DNA of 64,000 bases. Source: Minisyncoccota bacterium. Lineage in GTDB: Bacteria > Patescibacteriota > Microgenomatia > UBA1400 > UBA12028. The translations under genes and the position numbers were made by a program. Location of the stretch: the NCBI GenBank assembly GCA_003487265.1, contig DNEP01000001.1, forward strand, positions 24,572 through 88,571. The letters are read 5' to 3'. Under the pieces are notes generated by a model. The model did no database searches. It was given only the letters and a program-made list of their open reading frames with translations, and was not told the origin of the DNA. Shown here piece after piece: positions 1,379 through 58,362 of this stretch (its first letter is position 1; every line of letters begins with the position of its first letter).

Positions 1379-4300
1379 TTAGACGTTCGTTTCAGTCGAC
1401 GCGCGAATTCGCGCTATTTCTTTTTTCATATCTTGAAAAACATATGAATTACGAATGATGTAGATCAACTCGACGGGAATCTTCAATTTCAAATCGGTTA
1501 TTTCCTGAAACAGCGTGATGAGTAATGAAACTTGATCTGGTTTTTTCATTATTCGTTGAACAAAATCTTCCATCCCAACCCGAATCAGCACTCTGTTTGC
1601 TATTCTGGATTTAAGTGAAGTCGATGATACGTGAGGATTTGATTGCACGATCATCTCAATCATGTACTTCAATTCTTGTTCGCCAACAGTACCAGTCATT
1701 AATGTTTGATGTAATTCGCAATCTTGTTTTGACAAGTGAAGATATAAATCGCGATCAAGGATTGCCGTTTGTTCGGCAACATAAAAGTTTCCCTCGTGTG
1801 GATCGGAGTGATATATCACACACTCCTCTCCTTCTCGAACCACTTTATGTTTTTCAAAATCCAATTGATATTGCATAAATGATGTAATTTCCTCAAGACG
1901 ATCTGCAACAATCGCATCTTCTCCGTTTTGTATTCGTGTATTCAATGTGGAGCCTGAAAAATCTTGCGATGCGTGATATTCCGATTTCAACAAAGGTGAA
2001 TAAAAATCAATTTTTGGCACATACAGTGTTCCCTGTGGATTTTCTTGACGATATTGTTCAACAACATGCGTATACGATGTGTCATCCTCAAGAAAGTTCG
2101 AATCATATATTGTTCTCACCACGGTTTCATATGATATTTGATTGAGCATTTTGATGATCCCTAGCTCTCGTTTCCATTTTCTTTTTGACTGCTGTTCTGT
2201 AGCTTGCGTGGCAACCTCTATCGCATGTTTTGTTTCGGTTGTTATCCATTCTGCATTCGAGTTTACGAAACGAAGAACCAGTTTTGTTCCATCCATTTTT
2301 TTCGCGTTCCATACCGAGTGGATACTTCCAGCGGTAATCACATCAGAAATCTCGATTGATCGAAGATATGTATCAAGTTGTACCCTCGATTCGCGCATTT
2401 CTGGTGTATCAGTGTCTTTTGCTAAACACATGTTGTACGCATTTTCCCAAATTTGCGCCTTCACCATGCTGCGATTTTTATCCATCGAATCACGCCACTG
2501 TTTTCTATCCTCTGGTGAGAATTTCCAAAACAAGGTTGAAAATTGCGCCATACGAACAACACCCGCTCCTGCCATCTGAAGAACATCAAGTAAAGAACGA
2601 ATTTGAGATTCGTGTTTTTTTTCTTCAGTTTGCAAATACCGTTCCGATAATTTCTCTAAAATCGCCCTTCTCACACGACCAACTCGTTGCGTCGCCTCAA
2701 AAAGGTTCGATGTTGAAGATATTTTTTTATACATCGTTTTCTGTTCAGTAATATTATCTGTTCTCGAAGAAAGAATCGATTTAAAAGACTCACGTGTCCC
2801 AATGTTTTTGAACAGAGATAGGGTAACATCATCAAACTCATTCGGTGCCCCTTTTTTCTTTTCTATTGCATGAACAAAATAGTCGTAATCAACTAAAGAA
2901 GCATCATATGTTTGAAACAGTTTTTCCTTTAGAGATTGTGCAAGTGGAAATGCGAGCAGCGCTCGATCTGTATGACGTAAAATGTTTTGAAGAAACGTCA
3001 TTCCCAATTGATCCAGATTAAATAAGGAAGAGAAAATGTGAAGAATCTCATTTTTACTCAAATCTAAAATGCCGCCCTTTTCAGAAAACGATCGCAATAA
3101 AATGTAAAAACGCTCAATCGGACCTAATAGATGCAAACGTTCAATACTGTCCGCGAAACTCATAAAAAGATTTTCAAATATTGGTGCCATGACGAACTTT
3201 TTCGTTTCTGGATTATAGCGAAGATACGCATTACTTAATCGTAATTTATTTGAAACGGATTCTGTGTGAACCAGCATAAAAAACCATCGAGCGGCATTTT
3301 GTGTATTCAACCGAATCTTGTCATCAGTCGAGATTGAGCTCACCAACTCGTACGCATGGTCAATTACATGTGAAGCGAAATAATCAGCAGTCGCAACGAT
3401 CGAAGTTTTCATCGATCCATTCATTTTCTGATCCACTGCTTGACCAACATGTTTCCGCAAAAATAGATACTCATCGTAATGCTGAATTTGATCACAGAGA
3501 TATACATATCCCTCATATCCAATGGCGTCTTGTTTTACAGTATAAAAAAGTATCTTTTCACGCAATGAATCAGTTGATATCTTTAATAAATGCAGATACA
3601 TCCGTTGAATAATAAATTCAATTCTCCCCGATGCTGAGTATGGAAAGGCATTCTCCAATATACGAATTTGGTTTAAGATCAACGCTGGGTTGTCTGTGGA
3701 ATCAAATGCGTGTTCGATGTTTTTCATAAGATCGGAATATTCGAGAATCTCCATCAACTCACTTCCGAAAATCTTTTTCGACATCTTTTTCGAATAAGGC
3801 GACACCTTTCCAGATCCAAAGATTTGAAAAATAAATTGATGAAGTTGTTTCTCTTCTGAGATTCCATTATCCCTACTCAACAATACCTGAATCGGTCGTA
3901 GATTTGAAAAATCGGAATAATCCTTTTGATCTCTGTCGTACCACCCAAATACTGTTTTCGATTGAGGAAAAGAAAATTGAGTAAAATTGGTGGATAATAA
4001 TCCGACGTCATAGATTCGCATTGTACTGTCAAGAATGTTCGTTAAAAGATATAAAATGAATTCAGACGACATTGACTCCCACTCGATGTCTGCACTATTT
4101 ATTGTTTCCTCTAAGATAAGTCGGTACTCATCCGCATCTTCATTTTTTGAAAAAAGCGCACGAATAACGAATATTTTTTGTGCTAACTGAAGATATTTTG
4201 ATGAAACTTCAAGATTTGAAAACAACTCCTCAATAAACTCTTCATTCTTCGCAGAAGAAAACGGATACGTATGATATTTTTGAAAATAGTCTCGAAGAGA

Positions 4301-6355
4301 ATCACTTGAGTAGGGAGGATTAGAAAAATATCCAATAGGAAAAGAAAAGTTTTCTTGAAATTTTGCTGGCAAGTGATGAATGAATTCGATATTATAGGGC
4401 GCACGCACTATCATCGTGTCCATTTGTGCAAGCACCGATCGGACATGATCATTGATCCATGAGAGAAGATCTTGCTTCGTTGACATCTGGGGAGGGAATC
4501 TCATTTCAGATGAGAAAAGATATTCTGTTCGTTTTTGGATCTCTTCATACTGTTCAACTGATAGGACTCCCCCTTTCTGCTCTGCTGCAACCTGCAAATC
4601 AGAAAGTAAGGTAAATGACCACTCTTCAGCGACGTCTGTAAATAATTTTTTTGATGTTTCTGGCTCATCTAAACCGTTTGCGTCTATCCATGAAATGACC
4701 ATACTCGAAAAAGGATTTGAATAAAAAGAAAGGTTTTTTCGAATCGATGTCCAAGGCATCCGTTGTAACACGAGAGGATAGGTGAGAAGAAGATCTAGTG
4801 TTTCTTGAATATATTTCCTGTGTAAATCTGGAAAATACGAAAATTCAAGTCGTGATGGAAAAAACACGTTCATAAAAAGCATTTCGATTTCGTCATTCAC
4901 CCTATTTAATGTAAATGTTGGTTCTAAAGATTTTTCACTAGGTATTTGAGTTTCCAAATGAAAAAGTGCTTGCAACAACTCACATACTGTTTGTGAAGAA
5001 AGTCTTGCGTTTTGATCTCGAGAAAGAAGTATCCGCGAAGACGAAATGATCTGTAAAAAATCGGGTTTTCCCTGATTCGTTTTGTATATCTCGTTTCTTC
5101 TCTGAAAATAATCATTGGTTGGCTGGAAAATATCGGACATCTTGTTCAAATAGAACGCCCAATCTTGTCCAGTCATTTGATACAACATGCGCAATTCTTC
5201 AACGTGTCCTCGAACATAAGAACCGCCATAATCGTAAGAGTCTTTTTCCACCTCTTTTTCGAAAAACACGGTGTAGAATCGTTCATCATTTGTCATTTTT
5301 CCACGTGTTCGAGATAGCAACAACCGATAATACTCAACAACAACGCGTTCACACTGTTTTTTTTCTTGTTTCTGCTTTTCCGTTCCCGCCCACCATCTTT
5401 TCTCTCGGATTGTTTCTATTACGTCATATAAATCGCTCGGATGGAGTGTCTGCATCATTTCTATCGCTTCATCCGTTTTAAAATTACGCAACAACCAAGT
5501 GACATACTCTTTTTGTGTAGGCACCAGTGGTTCGGAAAATTCTTCTGAAATGCCGATTGTTTTCTTCATACTCGTTTCAGAATGAAGGACAAAATGTTGT
5601 CCAACCGTTTCCGTTGCGCGCATATCTGCCGTTTGATGTGAAAAATCGCGAGAACGAAGGGACACGTTTTGTAACAGGTAGGATTGACTGTCTTTAATAA
5701 ACTGTTCAAGTTTTCGAATTGCAGAAGCAAATGCAAGTGAGTTGTATCCAGCATTCTCAAGTCGATTTTTAACCAATACGTCTGCTGCAAACTCGTGAAT
5801 CCACTCGTATCCTACATTCGCCACTCCAAAAACGTTTCGCGCAAAGACATCAAGCGATAAATGATTTAATTCGTGTGCTAACACCGACGCAAACTCATCT
5901 TCAGAATGCAGTACGTGAAATAGTGAACTCGAGATCACAAGCGTCCTATCAGACATAACAAGCGCGTTGGGAATAACTCCGCGTTCCAACACAAACACGC
6001 GGACATTTTGCAATTTTGGATCATTTCCGGCAAGTTTATGAACAATATTTTCGAGCCATGTGACGCGTGAGGAATCTTGCTCAATACCATGCACCGCATC
6101 TAGTCGACCATAGACATCTGCATGTTGGCCATTGCTACAGGTGAACTGTTCCCCCCCTTCATACTCGTTTTCCCAATTGTTCCCATACATTCGCATCATG
6201 CGCTGATGCCTTTGAAAAAAAAGAAGATCGTTTTTTTCTTGATGATGTTGAACAGCAGGATGCGCGCCTTCTTTAGATGGAAACCCCTGAAGCCCTATCG
6301 CTGATTGTTCAAAAAACGCAGTTGTCATTGCATTCAGTATATCCAAGTTCGCCAC
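1379..6355 (-). CDS. Giant 1658-aa multidomain protein: N-terminal M48/M56-like zinc metalloprotease (HExxH...E) fused to a C-terminal UbiB/ABC1-type atypical kinase-like domain.
   Basis: Single uninterrupted ORF. N-terminal region contains VLAHELNHL followed by HEFAADV, the HExxH plus downstream Glu pattern of M48-like zincins. C-terminal region contains QMAGAGVVRMAQFSTLF, AGSIHSVWNAKKMDGTKLVLRFV and YHSDPHEGNFYV followed by ILDRDLYL, resembling the UbiB/ABC1 motifs HADPHPGN and (I/L)DFG. The ~1000 aa in between have no motif I recognise. Confidence 0.55.
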   Translation of the reverse strand: MANLDILNAMTTAFFEQSAIGLQGFPSKEGAHPAVQHHQEKNDLLFFQRHQRMMRMYGNNWENEYEGGEQFTCSNGQHADVYGRLDAVHGIEQDSSRVTWLENIVHKLAGNDPKLQNVRVFVLERGVIPNALVMSDRTLVISSSLFHVLHSEDEFASVLAHELNHLSLDVFARNVFGVANVGYEWIHEFAADVLVKNRLENAGYNSLAFASAIRKLEQFIKDSQSYLLQNVSLRSRDFSHQTADMRATETVGQHFVLHSETSMKKTIGISEEFSEPLVPTQKEYVTWLLRNFKTDEAIEMMQTLHPSDLYDVIETIREKRWWAGTEKQKQEKKQCERVVVEYYRLLLSRTRGKMTNDERFYTVFFEKEVEKDSYDYGGSYVRGHVEELRMLYQMTGQDWAFYLNKMSDIFQPTNDYFQRRNEIYKTNQGKPDFLQIISSSRILLSRDQNARLSSQTVCELLQALFHLETQIPSEKSLEPTFTLNRVNDEIEMLFMNVFFPSRLEFSYFPDLHRKYIQETLDLLLTYPLVLQRMPWTSIRKNLSFYSNPFSSMVISWIDANGLDEPETSKKLFTDVAEEWSFTLLSDLQVAAEQKGGVLSVEQYEEIQKRTEYLFSSEMRFPPQMSTKQDLLSWINDHVRSVLAQMDTMIVRAPYNIEFIHHLPAKFQENFSFPIGYFSNPPYSSDSLRDYFQKYHTYPFSSAKNEEFIEELFSNLEVSSKYLQLAQKIFVIRALFSKNEDADEYRLILEETINSADIEWESMSSEFILYLLTNILDSTMRIYDVGLLSTNFTQFSFPQSKTVFGWYDRDQKDYSDFSNLRPIQVLLSRDNGISEEKQLHQFIFQIFGSGKVSPYSKKMSKKIFGSELMEILEYSDLMKNIEHAFDSTDNPALILNQIRILENAFPYSASGRIEFIIQRMYLHLLKISTDSLREKILFYTVKQDAIGYEGYVYLCDQIQHYDEYLFLRKHVGQAVDQKMNGSMKTSIVATADYFASHVIDHAYELVSSISTDDKIRLNTQNAARWFFMLVHTESVSNKLRLSNAYLRYNPETKKFVMAPIFENLFMSFADSIERLHLLGPIERFYILLRSFSEKGGILDLSKNEILHIFSSLFNLDQLGMTFLQNILRHTDRALLAFPLAQSLKEKLFQTYDASLVDYDYFVHAIEKKKGAPNEFDDVTLSLFKNIGTRESFKSILSSRTDNITEQKTMYKKISSTSNLFEATQRVGRVRRAILEKLSERYLQTEEKKHESQIRSLLDVLQMAGAGVVRMAQFSTLFWKFSPEDRKQWRDSMDKNRSMVKAQIWENAYNMCLAKDTDTPEMRESRVQLDTYLRSIEISDVITAGSIHSVWNAKKMDGTKLVLRFVNSNAEWITTETKHAIEVATQATEQQSKRKWKRELGIIKMLNQISYETVVRTIYDSNFLEDDTSYTHVVEQYRQENPQGTLYVPKIDFYSPLLKSEYHASQDFSGSTLNTRIQNGEDAIVADRLEEITSFMQYQLDFEKHKVVREGEECVIYHSDPHEGNFYVAEQTAILDRDLYLHLSKQDCELHQTLMTGTVGEQELKYMIEMIVQSNPHVSSTSLKSRIANRVLIRVGMEDFVQRIMKKPDQVSLLITLFQEITDLKLKIPVELIYIIRNSYVFQDMKKEIARIRASTETNV

Positions 6356-6427
6356 TGAAAAATAGAAGAAAGTTGAGGTACAATAGTGATGTAAACTTCA
6401 TTATCACAATCACAAATAAAGGATCGC

Positions 6428-7597
6428 ATGCACACATCACATTCCGTTCTCACCCGAGGCGTTGAAACGGTTTTACCGTCGGTCGATGGGCTTCAAAAAC
6501 TCATGGATGCAAAAAAGATTCGACTGTATTTGGGAATTGACCCGACGGGGAATCAACTGCATTTAGGTCACGCGGTTGTGTTGCGCAAACTCCAACAGTT
6601 TGTGGAGTTGGGACATGAGGTTATTTTGTTGATCGGGAATGGGACGGTGAAGATTGGCGATCCGACGGGGAAGGATAAAACACGCCCAATGCTCACCGAC
6701 GAGGAAATTGATCAGAACTTTGCAACATGGAAAGAGCAAGCTTCAAAAATCTTGGATTTTTCGCGCATCACAATCAAAAAAAATGGAGATTGGCTCGATC
6801 CGTTGCGTTTTGCGGACTTAGTGAAACTTATGGCAACGACAACGGTCCAACAACTCCTCGAGCGTGACATGTTTCAGGAGCGCATGAAAAACAATCTGCC
6901 TATTTTTGCTCATGAGTTGATCTATCCCTTAATGCAAGGTTTTGATTCTGTCGCGATGGATGTTGATCTTGAAATTGGTGGAAACGATCAACTGTTTAAC
7001 ATGATGGTTGGTCGTCAGTTGCAGAAACAACTGAACAATCGAGAAAAATTTGTGATGAGTGTTCCGCTGTTGGTCGGAAGTGATGGGCGCAAGATGGGAA
7101 AAAGTCTGAATAATTTTATTTCGCTCACCGCGACAGCCGAGGATATGTACGGAAAGTTGATGAGCGTTGTGGACGAGGTGGTGCCGGTGTATTTTGAGTT
7201 GTTGACTGATACTCCTCTGGAAATGATTGAGAAAAGAAAACAACAGGTAGCGGAGGGTGAGCTTCATCCCATGGACTTTAAAAAAGAAATGGCATTTGCG
7301 GTAACGAATTCGATACACGGATCGGATGCGACACATGTTGCTCAAGAAGCGTTTGAGCGCACAATACAGCACAAAGAACTTCCTTCCAATCTTCCAGTTT
7401 TACACGTTGAGGAAAGTGCAACCGTGTTGAGCGCGGTGATTGCTTCTGGGTCGTGCGCGAGTACCGGAGAGGCTCGCCGACTCATCGAGCAGGGTGGAGT
7501 AGAGGTTGATGGAGTGAAGGTGCTTGATGGATTAACGAAACTTTCCATTCCATGCGTATTGAAGGTGGGGAAACGAAATTATTTCCGGGTGGAGTGA
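6428..7597 (+). CDS. tyrS: Tyrosyl-tRNA synthetase
   Basis: Class I HIGH motif in GIDPTGNQLHLGHAV and KMSKS-type motif GRKMGKSLNN. C-terminal S4-like domain (RRLIEQGGVEVDGVKV). Confidence 0.85.
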   Translation: MHTSHSVLTRGVETVLPSVDGLQKLMDAKKIRLYLGIDPTGNQLHLGHAVVLRKLQQFVELGHEVILLIGNGTVKIGDPTGKDKTRPMLTDEEIDQNFATWKEQASKILDFSRITIKKNGDWLDPLRFADLVKLMATTTVQQLLERDMFQERMKNNLPIFAHELIYPLMQGFDSVAMDVDLEIGGNDQLFNMMVGRQLQKQLNNREKFVMSVPLLVGSDGRKMGKSLNNFISLTATAEDMYGKLMSVVDEVVPVYFELLTDTPLEMIEKRKQQVAEGELHPMDFKKEMAFAVTNSIHGSDATHVAQEAFERTIQHKELPSNLPVLHVEESATVLSAVIASGSCASTGEARRLIEQGGVEVDGVKVLDGLTKLSIPCVLKVGKRNYFRVE

Positions 7598-8769
7598 TGA
7601 AACGAGAAGATTCTCAGTTTGATTCGGCCTATCAAGAGATTGTAGAAAAATTACGTCCCGCCCTTCCCGAAAAAGTTCTGCTCAAAAAACCTAATGAGGC
7701 TTTCAAAATTGCCTTAAAATTATTTTCACATGTGAACTACACTGTCTACAAACGTATTTTAACCCATGATTTTGGTAATTGGGGGGAAAGCAGCTTTTTC
7801 CCAACAACTGAATTGTACGAAAGATTTTGTTGGCGACGGCCTACGAACGTAGAACTACCAGATTGGAAAAAATGGATACGTTTAGGAGAAATAGGAAAAG
7901 AAGCATTAACCTTAGTCGGGAAAAGATTCGATTTGCCACCAATTGAAACAAGGGATGGTCCAATAGAATGGTTTGCTCACATCACAACAGGTATTTGGGA
8001 AGGAATAATTGAAATTCAATTCGTTATCAAAAAACCAAAATTTTTCACAGAGGATGTTTTTTCCCAAAAAGATGTTTCTAATGAATCCATTTCAGATCGA
8101 ATCTCAGAAAATATCCCCATCTGGACTACGCGATTGAATCCTGCCGGAGATCGAGCAACACCAACGATGCTTATTTCGGCAATACAGAGAATCACATCTG
8201 AGCTGAATACTACACCTATCAATAAGATGAAGAATGCTGACAAATACTTGAAATCTTTTCAAAATGGTTCAGATAAAACACCCCAATCGACATTAAAGGA
8301 TTTTTTTAAATACGTGATCGAGACTCATTTCACTCGAGAATCTAACCGATATGTTCTACCAAATATATATTTCCTCACAGAGTATCTTTTTAAAGCAATT
8401 CCTGGAAATTTTGCAATCGACCGCATCGAACGAAAACTTTCTTCGAAAATCGAGAACTGCATTCTTACGCTGAGTATACAAATATTACAATCGTTGGGTT
8501 ACAAATCTATACGGTTTATTGATGAACAACAGCAACAATCAATTCAACATCACAGATCGGCCGATAAGATACAGGAATCATTTTCATATAATGAGCTTGG
8601 TTCACTTTTCTTTACTCCAGACGGAAATCCAAACTATCCAAGGCATCCATTCAATCACTCTCATCAAGGAACATCGCTTGGTCTTACGGAACAAGCAAGA
8701 AAATCACTATCACCCGAGCTCATCCAATATTTAATGTCTGTTGACATAAAACTACAAAATTCTACATAA
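7597..8769 (+). CDS. Hypothetical protein (about 390 aa) with no motif I recognise
   Basis: Long ORF. The likely start, ATG at 7597, overlaps the tyrS stop (VMKREDSQF...). Confidence 0.4.
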   Translation: MKREDSQFDSAYQEIVEKLRPALPEKVLLKKPNEAFKIALKLFSHVNYTVYKRILTHDFGNWGESSFFPTTELYERFCWRRPTNVELPDWKKWIRLGEIGKEALTLVGKRFDLPPIETRDGPIEWFAHITTGIWEGIIEIQFVIKKPKFFTEDVFSQKDVSNESISDRISENIPIWTTRLNPAGDRATPTMLISAIQRITSELNTTPINKMKNADKYLKSFQNGSDKTPQSTLKDFFKYVIETHFTRESNRYVLPNIYFLTEYLFKAIPGNFAIDRIERKLSSKIENCILTLSIQILQSLGYKSIRFIDEQQQQSIQHHRSADKIQESFSYNELGSLFFTPDGNPNYPRHPFNHSHQGTSLGLTEQARKSLSPELIQYLMSVDIKLQNST

Positions 8770-38426: not shown

Positions 38427-38909
38427 ATGGAAACAGATCAACTTTCCCCAAGTCCTTTTGGAAACGAGCAAGGGGAGCCAGACGCATACAGAAATCAAGA
38501 TCAACCGTCCGAGGATACTACTGTAGGGGAAATAATCTATCCCATCGATGAACGTGGACAAATTGTGTGGAAAAAATCTGGAAAAGATGCTGACACTCAA
38601 CCAAGTATTTTTGATAAATATAAAGATCGCGATACAGATAAAAACAATGATCCCAAAAATGCTCCGGAAATGACGCAAGCCGTTCGAGAAGCGATTACCC
38701 CACTGATTCCTGAGGCAGAAAAGGCAGCAGAAATCGAAAGATATGTTGGACAAGCAATACTCGAAATTCGAGGTTCTAATCAATCTAAAGTACGTGGTGA
38801 ACTAGTGAAGGATGAAAAAGTACATTTATATGCGCGATTACTCATGATATCGAGGGGTCTTTCCTTACAACAAGCACTCGAATATGTCGTAGATGATATA
38901 CGCTCATAG
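38427..38909 (+). CDS. Hypothetical acidic protein (160 aa)
   Basis: ORF between gyrB and ppa. No motif recognised. Confidence 0.35.
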   Translation: METDQLSPSPFGNEQGEPDAYRNQDQPSEDTTVGEIIYPIDERGQIVWKKSGKDADTQPSIFDKYKDRDTDKNNDPKNAPEMTQAVREAITPLIPEAEKAAEIERYVGQAILEIRGSNQSKVRGELVKDEKVHLYARLLMISRGLSLQQALEYVVDDIRS

Positions 38910-38944
38910 TGTTAACACAGTATACGCAATTTATAGGAGGGCCC

Positions 38945-39583
38945 ATGTCCGACACACCAGATCTAAAAAAACTTCTCTTCTTCATCGAGATTCCCGCGGG
39001 GAGCTCGATCAAGTATGAAATCGACGAAGACACTGGCCTCCTCATGGCCGATCGCTTCCTGCATACCCAGATGACGTATCCCACAAACTACGGATTCATT
39101 ATGGGGACCGAAGGAAAAGACGGCGACCCCGTTGACGCACTTGTGCTGTCCAGCCAACCCGTCGCCCCAGGCGTCGGAATGAAAGGTCACCTTATTGGTG
39201 TGCTCGAAATGGAAGATGAAGAGGGAAGCGACAACAAAATGATCGCGGTCCCCGACAAAAAAGTCGACCCCATTTTTGGCGCGTATGAATCAATTGAAGA
39301 CGTGCCTCAACACATCAAAGACGTCATCAAACACTTTTTTGATCACTACAAAGAACTCGAAAAAGGAAAATTCGTCAAAACACACGAGTTTAAATCCAGA
39401 GAAGATGCCGAAAAAGAAGTCGCTGAATCATTTGTCGAAGGCGATGACGACTCCGAAGACGATTGTTGCTGTGGAGAATACTCTTGCGATTCCTGCAACG
39501 GCGAAAAATCATGTGAACATTGTTGCCAAGAGTGTTGCAAAAACTGCTGTGACGAAAAACACGAACACTCGGCGGGAAAATAA
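38945..39583 (+). CDS. ppa: Inorganic pyrophosphatase (family I) with an unusual C-terminal Cys-rich tail
   Basis: Family I PPase core (YPTNYGFI, GDPVDALVL, KMIAVPDKKVDP). It is followed by an extra tail, DDCCCGEYSCDSCNGEKSCEHCCQECCKNCCDEKHEHSAGK, with 13 Cys and 3 His in 41 aa. Confidence 0.8.
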   Translation: MSDTPDLKKLLFFIEIPAGSSIKYEIDEDTGLLMADRFLHTQMTYPTNYGFIMGTEGKDGDPVDALVLSSQPVAPGVGMKGHLIGVLEMEDEEGSDNKMIAVPDKKVDPIFGAYESIEDVPQHIKDVIKHFFDHYKELEKGKFVKTHEFKSREDAEKEVAESFVEGDDDSEDDCCCGEYSCDSCNGEKSCEHCCQECCKNCCDEKHEHSAGK

Positions 39584-39607: not shown

Positions 39608-42430
39608 ATGGCGGACGAAAACACACAACCAGTTGAAGAAATCGAAACGATCATTGAAACCGATCTTGAAAATACAGCGGAATCTGTTGTGGAATCGCCG
39701 TCCGCCAGTTCTGACACCCCAAGTCCAGTCAACCCCGCAACCCCCGTTGCCGCAGTCTCGGCTTTCATATCCAAACTCGTGAACATGAACGACCAGCGCG
39801 ACCCCGTCCAAACGGACTACGGCTTGGTCAAGCCAATGCCGATCGTGCAGGAAATGGAAAAATCCTACCTCGACTACGCGATGAGCGTGATCGTTGCCCG
39901 CGCGCTCCCAGATGTTCGCGATGGATTAAAGCCCGTACATCGCAGAATTCTGTTCGCGATGAAAGGAATGGGGCTTCACTGGAACACCGCCTATAAAAAA
40001 TCAGCGAGAATCGTCGGAGAGGTTTTGGGTAAATATCACCCGCACGGCGATACCGCGGTGTACGACGCGCTCGTTCGTTTAGCGCAAGATTTCAGCATGC
40101 GCTACCAATTGGTTGATGGGCAGGGGAACTTCGGATCGGTTGATGGTGACTCGCCAGCAGCCATGCGTTACACCGAAGCGCGCCTCACAAAAATTTCCGA
40201 GGAACTCCTCGGTGATATCGATAAAAATACCGTCGAGTTCATCGACAACTTTGACGGATCGCAACAAGAACCAACCGTTTTACCAAGCCGACTCCCGAAC
40301 TTGCTCCTCATGGGTGCAGAGGGAATCGCGGTGGGAATGGCAACAAAAATTCCACCACACAACATCACCGAAGTCGCAAATGCCATGATAGCGACGGTGC
40401 AATCATCAGCTGTTGAACTCGATGAAGAAACACTCGCGCTCACAAAAGAACCAACTCCCGATTCCATGCAAACCGCAGATTCGCAAAAACTTGCAGGCAC
40501 ACTGCAAACAAACATCACCATTCCTGAAATCTTGGAGCACATTCAAGGACCAGACTTTCCAACAGGTGGAGAGATGTTTGATTGGGCACAGATTAAAGAA
40601 GCATACGAAACGGGGAAGGGGAGAGTGGTGCTTCGGGCGGTCGCTTCGATCGAGGAAGCAAAATCAGGAAAATTTCAAATCATTATCACAGAACTGCCAT
40701 ATCAAGTTAACAAGTCGCGCCTTGTTGCAAAAATTGCGGATCTCGTTCGCGACAAAGTGCTTGTGGGAATTAGCGATCTGCGCGACGAGTCCGACCGCGA
40801 TGGACTTCGCATTATGATCGAACTCAAAAAAGACGCAAAACCAAAAGCGGTCCTCAACAACCTCTACAAACACACCGAGTTGCAATCCAGTTTCCCAATG
40901 AACATGGTTGCGCTTAATTCCGAAGGCACACCTCAACTCATGAACGTGAAAACTGTTCTTTCAGAATACCTCAAACATCGTCAGCTTGTGGTGATTCGAC
41001 GTTCACAATTTGAACTCAAATCGGCAAAAGATCGCGCGCATATCTTGGAAGGTTTGCTCATTGCCCTTTCAAATCTTGACGCCGTGATCGAAACGATTCG
41101 CAAATCACCAGACAGCGAAATTGCACGACAGCGCTTAATGGAACGCTTCAAACTCAGTGAAATTCAAGCAATCGCGATTCTCGACATGCAACTGCGAAGA
41201 CTTGCCGCGCTTGAGCGTAAAAAAATCGAAGAAGAATACAACCTCATCAAACAAACCATCGACAATCTTGTCACAATTCTTTCACAGCCACTCAAAGTGC
41301 TCGAAATTATCACGCAGGAAACGAAGAATCTCATTGAAGTCTATGGCGATGCTCGAAGAACAAAACTCCACAAAGGAAAAATCGGCGAGTTTAGCGAGGA
41401 AGATTTAATCGCAAACGACCCCATGATCGTCACCATCACCGAAACGGGATACATCAAGCGCATGAATCCCAGCACCTACCGCACACAACACCGCGGAGGC
41501 AAGGGTGTCACAGGAATGACCACAAAAGACGAAGACGCAATCATGAATATTCTGACCGCGAGCGCGCATGATTCCATGCTTATGTTCACAAACAAAGGAC
41601 GTGTGTTCAAGTTGAAGGTGCACGAACTCCCCGAGTCCAGTCGCCAAGCAAAAGGCACGAGCATTGTGAATCTTGTCAACCTTTCACCAGAAGAGCGCAT
41701 TCAATCTATCCTCACCATGGACGATAAAAAGGTTGATGCAACCGCATATATTGCACTCGCCACGCGCAAGGGATTGGTGAAGAAAACACCACTCAAGGAA
41801 TATCAGAACATTCGCACGAACGGCATCATCGCAATCATTTTGAAAGAAGGCGACGAGCTTGTGTGGGGAAAAATCACCAGTGGAACACACGATGTGATGT
41901 TAATTACGCATGATGGAAAATCTATTCGCTTCCCGGAAAGTGAGATCAAATCAACCAAGCGAGACACGCAAGGCGTAACCGCAATCGCACTCAAAAACGA
42001 TGACTATGTGGTTGGCGTTGAAGCAATTCCCACAAAAATCGAACCGTTACTCGACAAACGACGTAAACAATACCTTCATTTGCTTGTGATTACCGAAAAA
42101 GGAATGGGAAAACGCACCGAACTCACCGAGTACCCCGCGCAAAAAAGGGCAGGGCAGGGAGTGAAAGTGAGCGAGTTGTCCGACAAAACCGGCATGATCA
42201 CCAGCGCCGTCGCCGTTGATCAAACCATCGATGAAGTCATGCTTACCACAAAAGACGCACAGGTGATTAAACTTCCGTTGAAAAATATTCCTGTCTTGAA
42301 GCGACCAACACAGGGTGTGATTCTCATGCGATTCTCTTCAAAAGGAGATAAAGTTGTCGCAGTTGCGTTAACAAAGAAACCGTTAGATGATGATGAAGAA
42401 TCAGAATTCGATAGCGAAAAGAAAGAATAA
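39608..42430 (+). CDS. gyrA: DNA gyrase subunit A
   Basis: [32 protein letters not shown], the active-site Tyr region [10 protein letters not shown], and C-terminal beta-pinwheel repeats. About 60-75 aa of N-terminal extension, so the true start may be the internal Met at 39785. An insertion of about 35 aa lies before GPDFPTGG. Confidence 0.95.
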
Positions 42431-43298: not shown

Positions 43299-44231
43299 TC
43301 ATCCCTCCGAATGAAACTTCTTGTGCGCCTCGCGTAGTTGCCCCTGCGTCACATGCGTGTAGATCTGCGTTGTGGCGATGTTCTTGTGCCCAAGCATCTC
43401 CTGCACATCGCGCAAGTTCGCTCCGTTGACCAACAAGTCGGTCGCAAAAGAATGTCGCAATCCGTGAGGTGAGATCTTAATCGGCAGATGCGCGCGTCGA
43501 CAGTACAGGTCAACTATTCGCTGGACCGACCGCACCGTCAACCGCATCTTCTTTCCATCTTCGGTAATCCCAGGCTTGGTCCCCGAATATCGAATAAACA
43601 ACGGCTTCCAATCATCCGTTCGCGTCGCCAAATACTCCTTAATCCAGTCTGCCGATCGCTCACTCAAAAAAACCACGCGGTGCTTCCGACCTTTTCCAAT
43701 AACCCCAAACTCGCGACGCTCGAGATCAATCGTGTCGCGATCCAACGCCACCAACTCGCTCACGCGCAAACCCGTGCTAAACAGCACTTCTAATAGCACG
43801 CGATCCCGCAACCCTCGCGGAGAGTGCAAATCCGGCTTATCCATCAGTCGCTTAACTTGTTCATAGCGCAAGAACTTCATCGACCGAGATTCGGCCTTCG
43901 GCAACTCAATCTTCTCTGGTGAGAGCACTTGTATATCTCGTTTTGTGAGCCATTTAAACATCGAGCGCAACGCAATGACGTGATACGACTGCGTCGTTTT
44001 TGAAAGAACAGTTCCATGCACGTCCACGAACTCCGAAAGGTACACGCGGTACTTTCGAATATCATCCAAGGTAATTTTTTCAAGTGTTTGGATTTTTTGC
44101 GACTCACACCAATCGGCGAAGCGATGAAGGTAATGTTCATAATCCCGAATTGTGAGCTTGCTCAGGTTGCGCTCGACGTCGGCGTACTCAAGATATCCTA
44201 AAAGAGCCTCGTTTGGGCGGGAAAGATTCAT
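43299..44231 (-). CDS. xerD: Tyrosine site-specific recombinase (XerC/XerD family)
   Basis: N-terminal SAM-like domain and a C-terminal catalytic domain with R...HGLRHSFAT...LGHKNIATTQIYTHV, giving the R-H-R-Y tetrad. Confidence 0.8.
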   Translation of the reverse strand: MNLSRPNEALLGYLEYADVERNLSKLTIRDYEHYLHRFADWCESQKIQTLEKITLDDIRKYRVYLSEFVDVHGTVLSKTTQSYHVIALRSMFKWLTKRDIQVLSPEKIELPKAESRSMKFLRYEQVKRLMDKPDLHSPRGLRDRVLLEVLFSTGLRVSELVALDRDTIDLERREFGVIGKGRKHRVVFLSERSADWIKEYLATRTDDWKPLFIRYSGTKPGITEDGKKMRLTVRSVQRIVDLYCRRAHLPIKISPHGLRHSFATDLLVNGANLRDVQEMLGHKNIATTQIYTHVTQGQLREAHKKFHSEG

Positions 44232-44451
44232 CGCATTCCACCTCGATATAGTATTATTTCTGTATTGTTATAGGTTGTTGGCAACCGATGCGTTTTCCTG
44301 CTAAATGACTCAAGAGTAGGGAAGGGTTGATATATCCGTTCTTTTTGAGGTTGTGCCTTTTCGGCATTTATTCGCATGTTTTGTCGATTTTTTGGTGATT
44401 TTTACTCAAAATACTGTATTTAGTATGCAACATAGTCGGGAAGTTGTCAAC

Positions 44452-44493
44452 ATTGTGCGACATAGTGAGGAGTAGCTCATTATTGTGCGACAT
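44452..44493 (+). repeat. Two direct copies of the motif ATTGTGCGACAT(G), 30 nt apart, inside a 1.17-kb ORF-free region. A third, slightly divergent copy (ATTGTGCGACGTG) lies at 45051-45063 within a short inverted repeat (GTCGCA-N13-TGCGAC).
   Basis: Exact 12-mer at 44452-44463 and 44482-44493. Related copy at 45051-45063. Confidence 0.5.
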
Positions 44494-45402
44494 GAGAGTT
44501 GTTTTTGGATTCTGCCGCGAGCAACGAAAATCAACTAAGTTAGCTACAGCCCACGCAAAATATTTTTCTATTGCGATAGAAGCTTCTACTATCTTTCACA
44601 CAATCGATACCTATTTCAGTTTTGCGAGCGAGAACGAGGCTTTCGCGTACCTGTTTTAGCAAGCGTTCCATATATGAGCGGCTTCAACAATATATTGATA
44701 CATCAATCTCTTTTTACAACACCCCACCTCTGAACGACCGCGTAGAATGCCCAATTTCGGCTTTTTCTCGATCTGAACGTGCAATGTATCGTCGCAATTG
44801 TGGGCAAATCATCTGGAAACCTCACAAATCCATCAGTACCACACAAAAAATCGACGATATAAAAAAGAAGGCATAATCTCTTCGGGTGAGTTTCGGTTTT
44901 TCAAAAACAGGGCATCAGAAACAATAGGGAGCATCAATGACATGCCAAATAGGAGATTGGAATCGGGAGGAATTTAGAAGCAAAATGAAAAAATAAAAAT
45001 GAATTCATAAGCACTCCCCCGAACCCCATCTTTAGTGTCGCAAAAGTATTATTGTGCGACGTGGCAGAGATAGCATTTTATATCTCAATTTCCAAAAGAG
45101 AGTGCACTCTCTTTATTCCTCACAAACAGAAAATAAATTCCACTCGCTCCTCTCGGTAACCAATCCCGCATTCCAAGCCAAACTCCGTTCTCCGTCTACG
45201 CCACTCACGCAGGACACATACACCGAGCTTCGGGTATTTTTCTCCGCAGTTCACCAGACGTGGTATCTGGATCTTGAAGTTTTCCACATTCTTGAATCTG
45301 TTGTTTTCAATTCGTGAAAAGTCCTATAACTATTTTCACGAAAGGATACTAACTATATCACTTCCTCTGCAATACAGGATGCCTCCAAAAGCTCCACCTC
45401 CC

Positions 45403-46170
45403 CTACTTCCACATGGCGAACGAAAAATATGCGATCAATGAAATAAAAAACACCACCAGATATTCCCACACCGTATTCTTGAACATTTTTCCCTGCATTG
45501 TTGTTGTTTCAACTCCGAGAACGACATAGCTTGCCGACATGGTAAGCAACGATTGCGACCAAATCGAAGAAGGCAAAAACGACATCAACAACGCAATCTG
45601 TGCCAAGACAAGTCCATACACCGTCATCCGGCGGTACAGTTCAGCAGACAACGTACGACTTAACTCCATCGGCCATAACGCGAACAATCCCAAGATCTCT
45701 CCCAAAAGAAAAAACAGCACCCCATTAACCAACCAGTTCATGTTTTGTGAAAAGATCGTGTTTGAAAACAAGAAACAAACGAATAGGATTATAAACATGT
45801 TCACCGACTGCCCCGCGCGTAACAACTGGATTCCCCTCGCCTTCGCCACACTAAAAATATTTTCCATCAATAAAATCGCGTACATTCCCACTCCGAAAAA
45901 CACCAAAATTGCAACTTTCGTCCAGATATGTTCAGGGAGTAAATAATAGAAAACCGCCACCGCCAGCGCATAGACCGACGGCATCGGCACGATGGTAAGC
46001 CACTCAATCCCATTCAGATCCTCAAAGAGCGCCCAAGCCGTCACCGCGTAGGTAACCAACAAGAAAAACCCAATACCAAGTAACCGAAAGTCCAACGGAA
46101 TGTACTGTAACCCAAACAGCCCAAACGAAAGAAAAACCGCGCTTAAAAAGAATTTTTCACGTCTACGCAT
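45403..46170 (-). CDS. Polytopic integral membrane protein (255 aa, about 8 TM helices), function unknown
   Basis: Strongly hydrophobic ORF with multiple predicted helices. Confidence 0.45.
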   Translation of the reverse strand: MRRREKFFLSAVFLSFGLFGLQYIPLDFRLLGIGFFLLVTYAVTAWALFEDLNGIEWLTIVPMPSVYALAVAVFYYLLPEHIWTKVAILVFFGVGMYAILLMENIFSVAKARGIQLLRAGQSVNMFIILFVCFLFSNTIFSQNMNWLVNGVLFFLLGEILGLFALWPMELSRTLSAELYRRMTVYGLVLAQIALLMSFLPSSIWSQSLLTMSASYVVLGVETTTMQGKMFKNTVWEYLVVFFISLIAYFSFAMWK

Positions 46171-51921: not shown

Positions 51922-53232
51922 ATGACCTCAACTTTTCATTTTGACTCATACGAACTCAAGGAAGATCGACAGACTATCGCGTTTTTCTACCATCTTCAAC
52001 TTGAAGATGCCACGCACAATTTTGTTGAAACACTACAACTGCACGCGCCGATCCCCGTTTCCTATTCTCAAAAGCTCCTCAAAAACTATCTTCTTTCACT
52101 TCATCTTGCACTTGGAATTTCGTACTGGAAGCTCACCTGCTCAAACAGCGTTCTCGTCCATTCCGGTGAACTTTCCGATCAACAAGCGGAGTTTTGGAAC
52201 ACGACCTACGGTATTGGACTTGGCGAGTTCTACTACAAAAACCAAATTGATTTTCGTGCGATAAAACCTTTCATTGGAACGCATGTCGCACAATCATTTG
52301 CTTCAAATACACAACCAAAACCCGAAAAATATCTCATTGGAATTGGCGGAGGAAAAGATTCGCTCGTTACACTCGAGGTAATGAAACAGCACGCACTCCC
52401 GTTCGATTCATTCATCGTTGATTCAGGTTTTTTATTTTCACATCCGCTGCATACCGTGAGCGAACACCTGCAATCACAGTTATATGTGAATCGACACCTT
52501 GACCCCTCTCTTTTTCAACTCAATAGTTTGGGAACCTACTATAACGGGCATATTCCCGTATCTATGATCTTCGCATTCATTGGAACCTTTGTTGCATCGG
52601 CATTCGGATATTCCGCTTTTGTCGTTTCGAACGAAGCAAGCTCAAACGAAGGAAATGTGCAGTACCTTGGATTTGAGATCAATCATCAATGGAGCAAATC
52701 GACGACGTTTGAAAAACTTTTTCAACAGTACCTCACCACATTCGGCGAACAAACATCACGCTATTTTTCTTTTCTTCGACCGTTAAATGACCTTCAAATT
52801 TCGGCCCTTTTTTCGCAGATGACGCAATATCATGCCGTGTCCACTAGTTGCAATCAAGCGTTTCGTATCACAAATACCACCACACCTGTACGATGGTGCA
52901 AGTCGTGCGCAAAATGTGTGTTTACCTACCTCATGATGAAACCTTTTCTTACCCCAGATCAACGAAATACCTTGTTCGATGGCTCTTTTCCGATTGAACG
53001 CAATTCAGACCTTATCGCACAACTCCGAGGAGAAAAAGACACAAAACCATTCGACTGTGTCGGCACACCCGAAGAAGTTGTTCAAGCGATGCGACTCGCA
53101 AACCATCAAACACTTTCTTCAACTGAAGTACTTTCGTATGGTGAAGAATCGCTCATTCCCACCCCCCTTCGCGAGATCGTTCGTGAGGCACACAAGCAGG
53201 CAATTTCCATTATTCAGAAAGCAACATTATGA
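51922..53232 (+). CDS. Uncharacterised PP-loop (N-type ATP pyrophosphatase) superfamily protein, possibly tRNA-modification related
   Basis: IGIGGGKDSLVTLEV fits the SGGxDS PP-loop at about residue 150, after a 140-aa N-terminal extension. C-terminal WCKSCAKC Cys cluster. It lies 15 nt downstream of queA on the same strand. Confidence 0.45.
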   Translation: MTSTFHFDSYELKEDRQTIAFFYHLQLEDATHNFVETLQLHAPIPVSYSQKLLKNYLLSLHLALGISYWKLTCSNSVLVHSGELSDQQAEFWNTTYGIGLGEFYYKNQIDFRAIKPFIGTHVAQSFASNTQPKPEKYLIGIGGGKDSLVTLEVMKQHALPFDSFIVDSGFLFSHPLHTVSEHLQSQLYVNRHLDPSLFQLNSLGTYYNGHIPVSMIFAFIGTFVASAFGYSAFVVSNEASSNEGNVQYLGFEINHQWSKSTTFEKLFQQYLTTFGEQTSRYFSFLRPLNDLQISALFSQMTQYHAVSTSCNQAFRITNTTTPVRWCKSCAKCVFTYLMMKPFLTPDQRNTLFDGSFPIERNSDLIAQLRGEKDTKPFDCVGTPEEVVQAMRLANHQTLSSTEVLSYGEESLIPTPLREIVREAHKQAISIIQKATL

Positions 53233-58278: not shown

Positions 58279-58362
58279 GCCGGGGTGCTGAAATGGTAGA
58301 CAGGCTAGTCTCAAAAACTGGTGAGCTTTACGCTCATGAGGGTTCAAGTCCCTCCCTCGGCA
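58279..58362 (+). tRNA. tRNA-Leu (anticodon CAA)
   Basis: GCCGGGGTG...AATGGTAGA...CTAGT-CTCAAAA-ACTGG...long variable arm TGAGCTTTACGCTCA...GAGGGTTCAAGTCCCTC-CCTCGGC-A. Aligns closely with a bacterial tRNA-Leu cloverleaf with anticodon loop CUCAAAA. No CCA is encoded. Confidence 0.85.

Follow-up and report, generated by a model that had tools for sequence, protein, structure and literature searches.

Between positions 44232 and 45402 of the window, that is, the whole 64-kb stretch of DNA analyzed here (contig DNEP01000001.1 of a Minisyncoccota bacterium), lies a gap of 1171 nt that is bounded by xer, the gene of a single tyrosine recombinase, and by the gene of a DUF5656-like membrane protein, and that contains a 28-bp site of the type of the chromosomal recombination site dif. 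An earlier interpretation made from the letters alone (hereafter the sequence-only reading) had described this gap as by far the longest non-coding stretch of the window, with a Xer-type recombinase on one side and a membrane protein on the other. Both descriptions were confirmed, the runner-up among the non-coding stretches being about 400 nt long. The features on which the following analysis is built are:

43299–44231, minus strand: xer, encoding a single XerC/D/A-like tyrosine recombinase of 310 amino acids (NCBIfam profiles, PDB match, and orthologues).
45035–45062, plus strand: dif-type core site, with left arm GTGTCGCAAAA (45035–45045), centre GTATTA (45046–45051), and right arm TTGTGCGACGT (45052–45062).
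45403–46170, minus strand: gene of the DUF5656-like membrane protein, the conserved left neighbour of the module yebC–DUF5656–gap–site–gap–xer.

The sequence-only reading had drawn attention to a short motif present three times in the gap, twice at an interval of 30 nt and once within an inverted repeat. Indeed, ATTGTGCGACAT is read at 44452–44463 and 44482–44493, and the third copy, ATTGTGCGACGTG, was correctly placed at 45051–45063; the two halves of the inverted repeat, GTCGCA (45037–45042) and TGCGAC (45055–45060), are however separated by 12 nt and not by 13. The motif exceeds its background frequency, as ATTGTGCGACRT with at most one mismatch has 6 matches in the window against 1.1 expected, a number reached in none of 100 shuffles, and the exact 9-mer TTGTGCGAC occurs 4 times against 0.83 expected. 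A fourth exact ATTGTGCGACAT, on the minus strand at 52283–52294 within a MurL-like open reading frame (ORF; 51922–53232), is probably due to chance. The ORFs of the gap are only short, as had been stated (87 residues or fewer), and the proteins that they would encode are not conserved in 68 syntenic gaps: when six-frame segments of the gap were compared with these, matches arose solely from translation of the site itself. Small proteins were rejected as an explanation, the ORFs past the site being non-conserved, T-rich artefacts. Among the options that the sequence-only reading had offered, the first, a dif-like recombination site plus regulatory sites, is the one that the analysis bears out: the third motif copy would belong to the dif-type core, and the other two would be half-sites at the xer promoter.

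For comparison, we used 80 orthologous xer loci of Microgenomates (hereafter the relatives; subsets of 67–73 were used per test), together with two sets from other lineages, namely, 120 metagenome loci and 113 IMG/VR stretches; labels from L006 to L322 denote individual loci. The same 1171-nt gap and an identical Xer protein were also found on 23 groundwater metagenome contigs, and a strain variant (L007) lacks 2 nt at 45086–45087.

The core site has an 11-6-11 form as read from the sequence, with imperfectly inverted 11-bp arms around a 6-bp central region, in line with the two imperfect inverted arms of about 11 bp and the centre of 6–8 bp that define dif. Its 24-nt core occurs in one copy only within the window. 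When the gap was aligned with the 80 xer loci, one outstanding conserved block emerged, at 45037–45060. A single copy of the core site lies upstream of xer in 73 of these loci, and the remaining 7 without it have mostly a short upstream flank; wherever it was present in a fetched locus, whether of the xer, metagenome, or IMG/VR set, the full site occurred once. In the consensus TTAYGTCGYAAAA-GTWWTA-TTGTGCGACATAA, the arms are near invariant and the 6-bp centre is variable (GTATTA, GTTATA, GTAATA, TGTATA, and others among the relatives), and information content is limited to about 32 bp in a logo of 72 loci. Past the arms, the flanks can form 2.64 complementary pairs against 2.58 in shuffled controls, and a long RNA or DNA hairpin around the site was rejected on this ground. 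Because complementarity stops at the arms, the site appears to be a protein–DNA site and not an RNA stem or a long hairpin. Arm TTGTGCGAC resembles TTATGCGCACC, the XerC-side arm of Escherichia coli dif.

The order yebC–DUF5656–gap–site–gap–xer is conserved in the relatives, gyrA and SIMPL also being in fixed synteny with xer. The long non-coding interval is conserved as well: the distance from DUF5656 to xer is 0.5–4.7 kb, and the site, whose orientation can flip, lies 0.3–4 kb from xer.

Aligned with XerD (1a0p), the Xer protein has a complete catalytic set, R-K-HxxR-H-Y, with the stretches GLRVSEL, GKGRKHR, HGLRHS, LGH, and IYTHV. XerD 1a0p is also the best PDB match (3.9e-39), and XerH 5jjv is only the seventh (7e-16). 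The matches of Xer to the profiles of XerD, XerC, and XerA range from 1e-63 to 1e-73, and Xer is about equally like all three; it falls below all the NCBIfam equivalog cut-offs, with 247.3 bits against 329.6 for XerD (TIGR02225), 242.9 against 335.15 for XerC (TIGR02224), 126 against 267 for XerS, and 212 against 220 for XerA, the cut-off that it approaches most closely. Orthologues 58–66% identical are present in the 80 relatives, which are Microgenomates or 'Pacebacteria'-type genomes of the Candidate Phyla Radiation (CPR). In many relatives (L012–L034), a tRNA gene is situated shortly (about 1–2.5 kb) downstream of xer; the sole tRNA of the window is at 58279–58362.

The site family extends well beyond these loci. 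The pattern GTCGYAAAA-N5-ATTGTRCGAC is widespread in metagenomes, mostly not adjoining xer; of the 120 other-lineage loci, 111 have the site in intergenic DNA, and in 40 of 62 the genes on its two sides converge. The pattern was found in the 113 IMG/VR stretches as well, and at 9 of these 113 loci (L279 at 2195–7631, L215, L249, L253, L275, L305, L307, L309, and L316) the full site is accompanied by a second site, 5.1–5.9 kb off and in direct orientation. In all nine, this second site is a hybrid, having the host's own central 6 bp and a right arm exactly shared with the full site, next to an unrelated left arm. Since the hybrid junctions share the exact local centre, the six central bases would be the crossover region. 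Four inserts with four different centres were examined, and each encodes a Zot-like assembly ATPase and a rolling-circle replication protein (Rep); no integrase match was obtained for the Zot-like ATPase, Rep, or the other ORFs scanned in them. L209 is an empty-site relative of L279. Integrative elements exploiting Xer (IMEX) are known to have this architecture (PMC5357621), and dif of Legionella was revealed through an integrated element that mimics it (PMC9765430). Full and hybrid flanking sites are the mark of Xer-mediated (IMEX) integration, in this case apparently by inovirus-like prophages.

Two further observations concern the surroundings of these sites. At L279, a 77-residue ORF and about 380 nt next to the right arm are present twice, at the end of the prophage (2300–2533) and in the host flank after 7631; the duplicate could have been left by a previous integration, or it could represent a factor adjacent to dif. 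In another lineage (L141, L095, L105, L128, L152, and L190), the gene to the right of the site encodes a coupling ATPase of the TrwB/TraG/HerA type, and the other side of the site carries murG and a possible ftsQ-like gene without a Pfam match.

Another explanation, also among those offered by the sequence-only reading, is that the gap is itself the scar of an integrated mobile element, with the adjacent recombinase as its integrase and the motif copies as remnants of its attachment sites. A tyrosine recombinase beside a repeated short motif would fit this explanation, as would a population variant that differs by one 30-nt unit (described below). The recombinase is, however, a conserved core gene, kept across the Microgenomates at the above identity and in fixed synteny with yebC, DUF5656, gyrA, and SIMPL. 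Moreover, no hybrid site made of the centre and one arm was found in the window, in the 80 genome loci, or in the 120 metagenome loci, and there is no Pfam match to a typical mobile-element gene nearby, though several neighbours have no Pfam match at all. We regard a scar as hardly conceivable.

The site also marks a reversal of strand polarity. The hexamer AGGGGA occurs 14:1 (plus:minus) to the left of the site in the window and 0:12 to its right (Fisher 7.5e-7); AGGGGA(G) is represented by 27 copies between 9421 and 63859 against 14.9 expected, and its strand switches between the last plus copy at 40617 and the first minus copy at 45399. The same was seen in 73 relatives, for which the left side gave 248:43 and the right side 19:165. 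By locus, the bias was 65 versus 2 on the left and 56 versus 5 on the right, and it is present in each distance bin up to 7 kb. A coding-strand artefact was ruled out by splitting the counts by gene strand: on the left side, plus-strand genes have a ratio of 99:19, minus-strand genes one of 45:5, and intergenic DNA one of 104:19, with the right side as the mirror image. In a ranking of converging k-mers, AGGGGA was the top 6-mer, AGGGGAG the top 7-mer, and AGGGGAGA the top 8-mer, and AGGGGA is about 3-fold over-represented on the strand pointing toward the site in the relatives, in which its bias opposes a weak GC skew on the left. FtsK-orienting polar sequences (KOPS) and guide motifs of their type converge on dif (PMC2958812 and PMC3384302). 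The site here lies where the polar motifs reverse, as a dif does, and AGGGGA(G) resembles KOPS and is a candidate guide motif for the clade.

Collectively, we consider it likely that the gap carries the cis elements of a Xer/dif-type module, lineage-specific and with a single recombinase, of a Microgenomates (CPR, or Patescibacteria) bacterium, and the 28-bp copy is very probably the chromosome-unlinking site of this ultra-small bacterium. Two monomers of the adjacent Xer would bind the 28-bp site, and two such sites would synapse and recombine, converting chromosome dimers to monomers. A KOPS-reading translocase of the FtsK type would bring the two site copies together where the polarity of AGGGGA(G) reverses, and Xer bound to the promoter half-sites would feed back on xer transcription, more likely by repression. 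For the CPR, full-text literature searches found no description of dif, Xer, KOPS, or chromosome dimer resolution.

Several observations weigh against such a module. The IMEX junctions stem from other, uncultured lineages without an adjacent xer and not from this genome or its xer-linked relatives. The position of the 'RQ' motif, by which XerD contacts FtsK-gamma (as defined in PMC2958812), reads V-R-S in Xer, and no FtsK gene was found within the window. The proposed −10 box of xer (described below) is only CATACT, and its position implies a 5′ untranslated region (UTR) of about 185 nt. Finally, GC skew keeps its sign at the site: in locus orientation, 57 of 67 relatives have a positive skew on either flank (averaging +0.143 versus +0.055), and in the window the skew at third codon positions (GC3) is negative on both sides over tens of kilobases. 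With a step of only about 0.09 at the site, the skew does not define a terminus there as expected for dif, and a terminus by GC or GC3 skew was rejected because there is no sign change. As the polarity of AGGGGAG and the dif-type site mark one point while GC skew keeps its sign, segregation polarity seems to be uncoupled from replication-linked composition.

In L061, L078, and L084, GC skew is very strong (0.2–0.5) and of the same sign on either side of the site. L061 and L078 have the same left-flank AGGGGA bias despite the opposing strong skew (counts are small), and L084 is without such bias. A chromosome-wide G/C strand disparity has been reported for UBA1400 Microgenomates (PMC7143001), which matches these three loci; for related Microgenomates, an origin beside the terminus and largely unidirectional replication were proposed (PMC7143001).

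The two remaining motif copies stand immediately upstream of the putative xer promoter:

44422–44450, minus strand: putative xer promoter with −35 box TTGACA (44450–44445), 17-nt spacer, and −10 box CATACT (44427–44422), scored 10/12 in a promoter scan.
44452–44463, minus strand: proximal Xer half-site ATGTCGCACAAT, which repeats the sequence of the full site's right arm and abuts the −35 box.
44482–44493, minus strand: distal Xer half-site, upstream of the proximal one by a single repeat unit of 30 nt.

The order in the window is thus ATGTCGCACAAT-gTTGACA-17-CATACT, with the proximal half-site 2 nt from the −35 box. Among the half-sites upstream of xer in the relatives, 12 of 42 (in 12 relatives) have the same register of half-site, 2 nt, −35 box, and −10 box, compared with 1.6% of control positions. 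Outside the full site, 47 of 91 half-sites of the form GTCGYAMAA fall in the 400 nt upstream of xer, which make up 3.6% of the sequence (an approximately 14-fold enrichment), and those upstream of xer mostly share one orientation. The strain variant L006 (an ERZ27254805 contig) lacks exactly one 30-nt unit, 44452–44481, and hence one promoter half-site. This arrangement suggests that Xer binds half-sites on its own promoter and autoregulates, and we think that repression is the more likely sign of its feedback on its own transcription. About 100 nt upstream of the xer start codon, a block GGATATATCAACCCTT (44323–44338, minus strand) is conserved in L010, and its k-mer GATATATCA recurs in about 20 gaps; this block may be a second promoter or a 5′-UTR element.

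A palindromic site with copies at the xer promoter could also be the operator of an ordinary transcription factor that controls xer and its neighbours with no binding of Xer, for example, the YebC/PmpR-family protein encoded by yebC, a conserved neighbour annotated as a DNA-binding regulator. Lone half-sites are nevertheless odd for dimeric regulators and natural for Xer monomers, and the full site is 0.3–4 kb from any promoter and can flip its orientation. Furthermore, the site is present in lineages with neither xer nor yebC nearby, and the prophage junctions match its variable 6-bp centre exactly, as expected of a crossover region. Such an operator is very improbable.

On either side of the site, the gap holds further features, mostly between the site and the DUF5656 gene:

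44980–45030, no strand: on the side of the left arm, an A/T-rich tract followed by the C-rich tract GCACTCCCCCGAACCCC (sequence reading).
45091–45114, minus strand: hairpin AAAGAGAGTG/CACTCTCTTT followed by TTTT, terminator-like and ending about 35 nt before the site.
45221–45242, minus strand: variant of the conserved AAAACCCGAAT motif, reading AAAAATACCCGAAGCTCGGTGT, with a small hairpin (k-mer conservation and AAAACC/GGUUUU pairing).
45280–45288, plus strand: DnaA-box-like site TTTTCCACA, with one mismatch to TTATCCACA and pointing toward the site.
45310–45360, minus strand: TGATATAGTT box (45360–45351), like an extended −10 box and found in 60 of 69 relatives, then an inverted repeat CGTGAAAA/TTTTCACG around TTATAGGAC.

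The A-rich tract that the sequence-only reading had mentioned was located at about 44980–45005. The C-rich tract GCACTCCCCCGAACCCC, which reads GGGGTTCGGGGGAGTGC on the minus strand, contains a polar motif copy of the GGGGAG type, and in the alignment of the relatives a pyrimidine-rich block 20–27 nt from the core shows moderate conservation.

In 69 gaps of the relatives, the interval from the DUF5656 gene to the site has a shared series of motifs that is ordered and strand-specific: TGATATAGT; the DnaA box TGTGGATAA; TATAGGAC with TTTTCAC; TGCAAGAAT with AAAACCCGAAT; and the hairpin with its T-run. The extended-−10-like TGATATAGT occurs in 60 of the 69 gaps, often in tandem, with copies of 10 nt; since the rest of the window has no repeat of it, it was rejected as a general promoter consensus. 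Located about 190 nt short of the site, the k-mer AACCCGAA has 61 forward and 2 reverse occurrences in the 69 gaps. In 26 relatives, which all belong to the Pacebacteria-like group, a purine/pyrimidine hairpin and T-run like those of the window end 20–41 nt ahead of the site.

Such a series raises the question, also posed by the sequence-only reading, of whether the gap is mainly a structured non-coding RNA gene on the minus strand, running from about 45350 to 45090, with the motif copies as its parts or signals. Its opening by the promoter-like TGATATAGT, its closure by the hairpin and T-run about 35 nt before the site in the 26 relatives, and the small conserved hairpin AAAACC-CGAAUA-GGUUUU would all accord with an RNA. 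A search of Rfam 15, however, gave no family for the gap in the window or in 16 relatives at either gathering or permissive (E ≤ 10) thresholds, and ARAGORN detected nothing in the gap; RNAalifold returned 0 conserved pairs in 14 other-lineage sequences, with weak covariation in a 6-sequence subgroup. Moreover, the order of TTTTCAC, TAGCCTGG, and TATAGGAC is permuted, and these motifs appear in either orientation and as direct repeats, which suggests protein sites, and the 28-bp site has no extended stem. An RNA would also leave the promoter half-sites, the IMEX junctions, and the polarity switch unaccounted for. An RNA gene as the main content of the gap is therefore unlikely, although the promoter-like box and terminator-like hairpin leave room for a transcript at about 45090–45350. 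With a Xer/dif-type module as the preferred reading, the flank at about 45090–45360 may have an accessory or regulatory function as DNA, or it may give rise to a short non-coding RNA transcribed in the direction of the site.

The DnaA box of the flank bears on a different explanation. The sequence-only reading had found no DnaA-box-like repeats and so no support for an origin; there is indeed no cluster, but it had missed the single conserved one-mismatch box TTTTCCACA at 45280–45288. Its counterpart is a perfect TTATCCACA in 38 of the 69 relatives, with no change of strand among them, and box density is 0.66 per kb in the gaps against 0.07 per kb outside. In other lineages, a DnaA box pointing at the site, 167–285 nt off, was found in 17 of 62 and 20 of 87 loci, compared with about 0.3 expected. 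In several lineages (the window, the gaps of the relatives, and L103–L322), a box (TTATCCACA or TTTTCCACA) is thus aimed at the site from a distance of 170–480 nt. L084 has three perfect boxes, and two perfect boxes of this locus are situated in the interval that separates the promoter half-site from the xer ORF.

It might hence be proposed that the gap is a replication-control region, either an oriC or a co-located origin and terminus, in which the palindrome is bound by the replication machinery and not by Xer. This proposal draws on the conserved box aimed at the site in several lineages, the three perfect boxes of L084, the A/T-rich tract beside the site, and the long conserved non-coding region; the same skew sign on both flanks would fit unidirectional replication from an adjacent origin and terminus (a hypothesis of PMC7143001). 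Most gaps, however, contain 1–2 boxes only, and the window contains one imperfect box; no DnaA-box cluster with an AT-rich element at a GC-skew minimum, as would characterize oriC, was found, in agreement with the sequence-only reading, which had made no oriC assignment. Converging AGGGGA is expected at a terminus or dif and not at an origin, the flanking genes converge in other lineages, the skew of the window is not uniform and is near 0 at 1–24 kb, and the IMEX junctions point to crossover in the central 6 bp. No dnaA or dnaN was named beside the module, a weak argument, as the comparison used 16 window proteins that include neither DnaA nor DnaN and many neighbours are unnamed. Taken together, a replication-control region in place of a Xer site is quite improbable. 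That DnaA or replication is wired directly to Xer/dif in this clade is doubtful; in one form, DnaA would gate promoter reading into dif, and in the other, origin and terminus would be side by side with largely unidirectional replication (PMC7143001).

Apart from these subjects, an inorganic pyrophosphatase ORF at 38909–39583 has an unusual Cys-rich C-terminal tail (…CCCGEYSCDSCNGEKSCEHCCQECCKNCCDEKHEH).

CPR bacteria, or Patescibacteria, make up a large share of bacterial diversity. For this group, the locus offers a candidate dif sequence, its putative cognate single Xer, and the candidate guide motif AGGGGAG, together with evidence of small filamentous phages that appear to hijack the site. 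The module may serve as a landmark for the convergence point of chromosome-arm polarity in metagenome-assembled genomes and may also help to identify integrated elements of the inovirus-like type together with the CPR bacteria that host them. The placement of half-sites on the xer promoter presents a testable case of a possibly self-regulating Xer, and the mismatch between skew and polarity, along with the DnaA box beside dif, bears on how small CPR genomes replicate.

Among known systems, XerS/difSL of Lactococcus and Streptococcus and XerH/difH of Helicobacter and Campylobacter likewise have one Xer and arms imperfectly symmetric around a short centre. The linkage of gene and site, a hallmark of both (PMC5357621), is shared here, as is a polar guide motif converging on the site, described in L. 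lactis (PMC3384302). In contrast, the present Xer belongs to neither family (XerS, 126 versus 267 bits; XerH 5jjv, 7e-16 versus 4e-39 for XerD), the core sequence differs from that of difSL, with a centre of 6 bp instead of 11 bp, and the site lies 0.3–4 kb from xer and not directly adjacent to it. Half-sites on the recombinase promoter and a DnaA-box flank were not found described for those systems.

The XerCD/dif system with FtsK and KOPS, present in E. coli and most bacteria, resembles the module in its 28-bp 11-6-11 site, in the closeness of Xer to XerD and XerC, in the reversal of a G-rich polar motif, and in its exploitation by IMEX filamentous phages. The module differs from it in its one xer gene, the number observed at the locus, in its two arms, which share a single type, and also in the scores below the XerC and XerD cut-offs, the absence of the XerD RQ motif, and the unchanged sign of GC skew at the site. 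Archaeal XerA/dif, like the module, has a single recombinase and conserved sequences flanking the site, and XerA is the profile whose cut-off Xer approaches most closely; in crenarchaea, the dif site is close to xerA (PMC2958812). XerA is FtsK-independent, and its polar sequences are 4-mers (PMC2958812), whereas the module is of a bacterial lineage, with a different core and a KOPS-like polar motif of 6–8 nt.

XerL/dif of Legionellales (LME-1; PMC9765430) is likewise a lineage-specific single-recombinase system whose site was revealed by integrated elements carrying a mimic of it. XerL was proven genetically, whereas the present module is proposed from sequence; protein and site differ, and the elements here are inovirus-like prophages. 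Finally, the plasmid sites cer and psi combine a Xer core with a few hundred base pairs of conserved non-coding DNA on one side (PMC5357621), as the module does, but the latter is chromosomal, and its flank motifs (the DnaA box, TGATATAGT, and others) are unrelated to the sites of PepA, ArgR, and ArcA; that the flank might play an accessory role, as in cer and psi, is pure conjecture.

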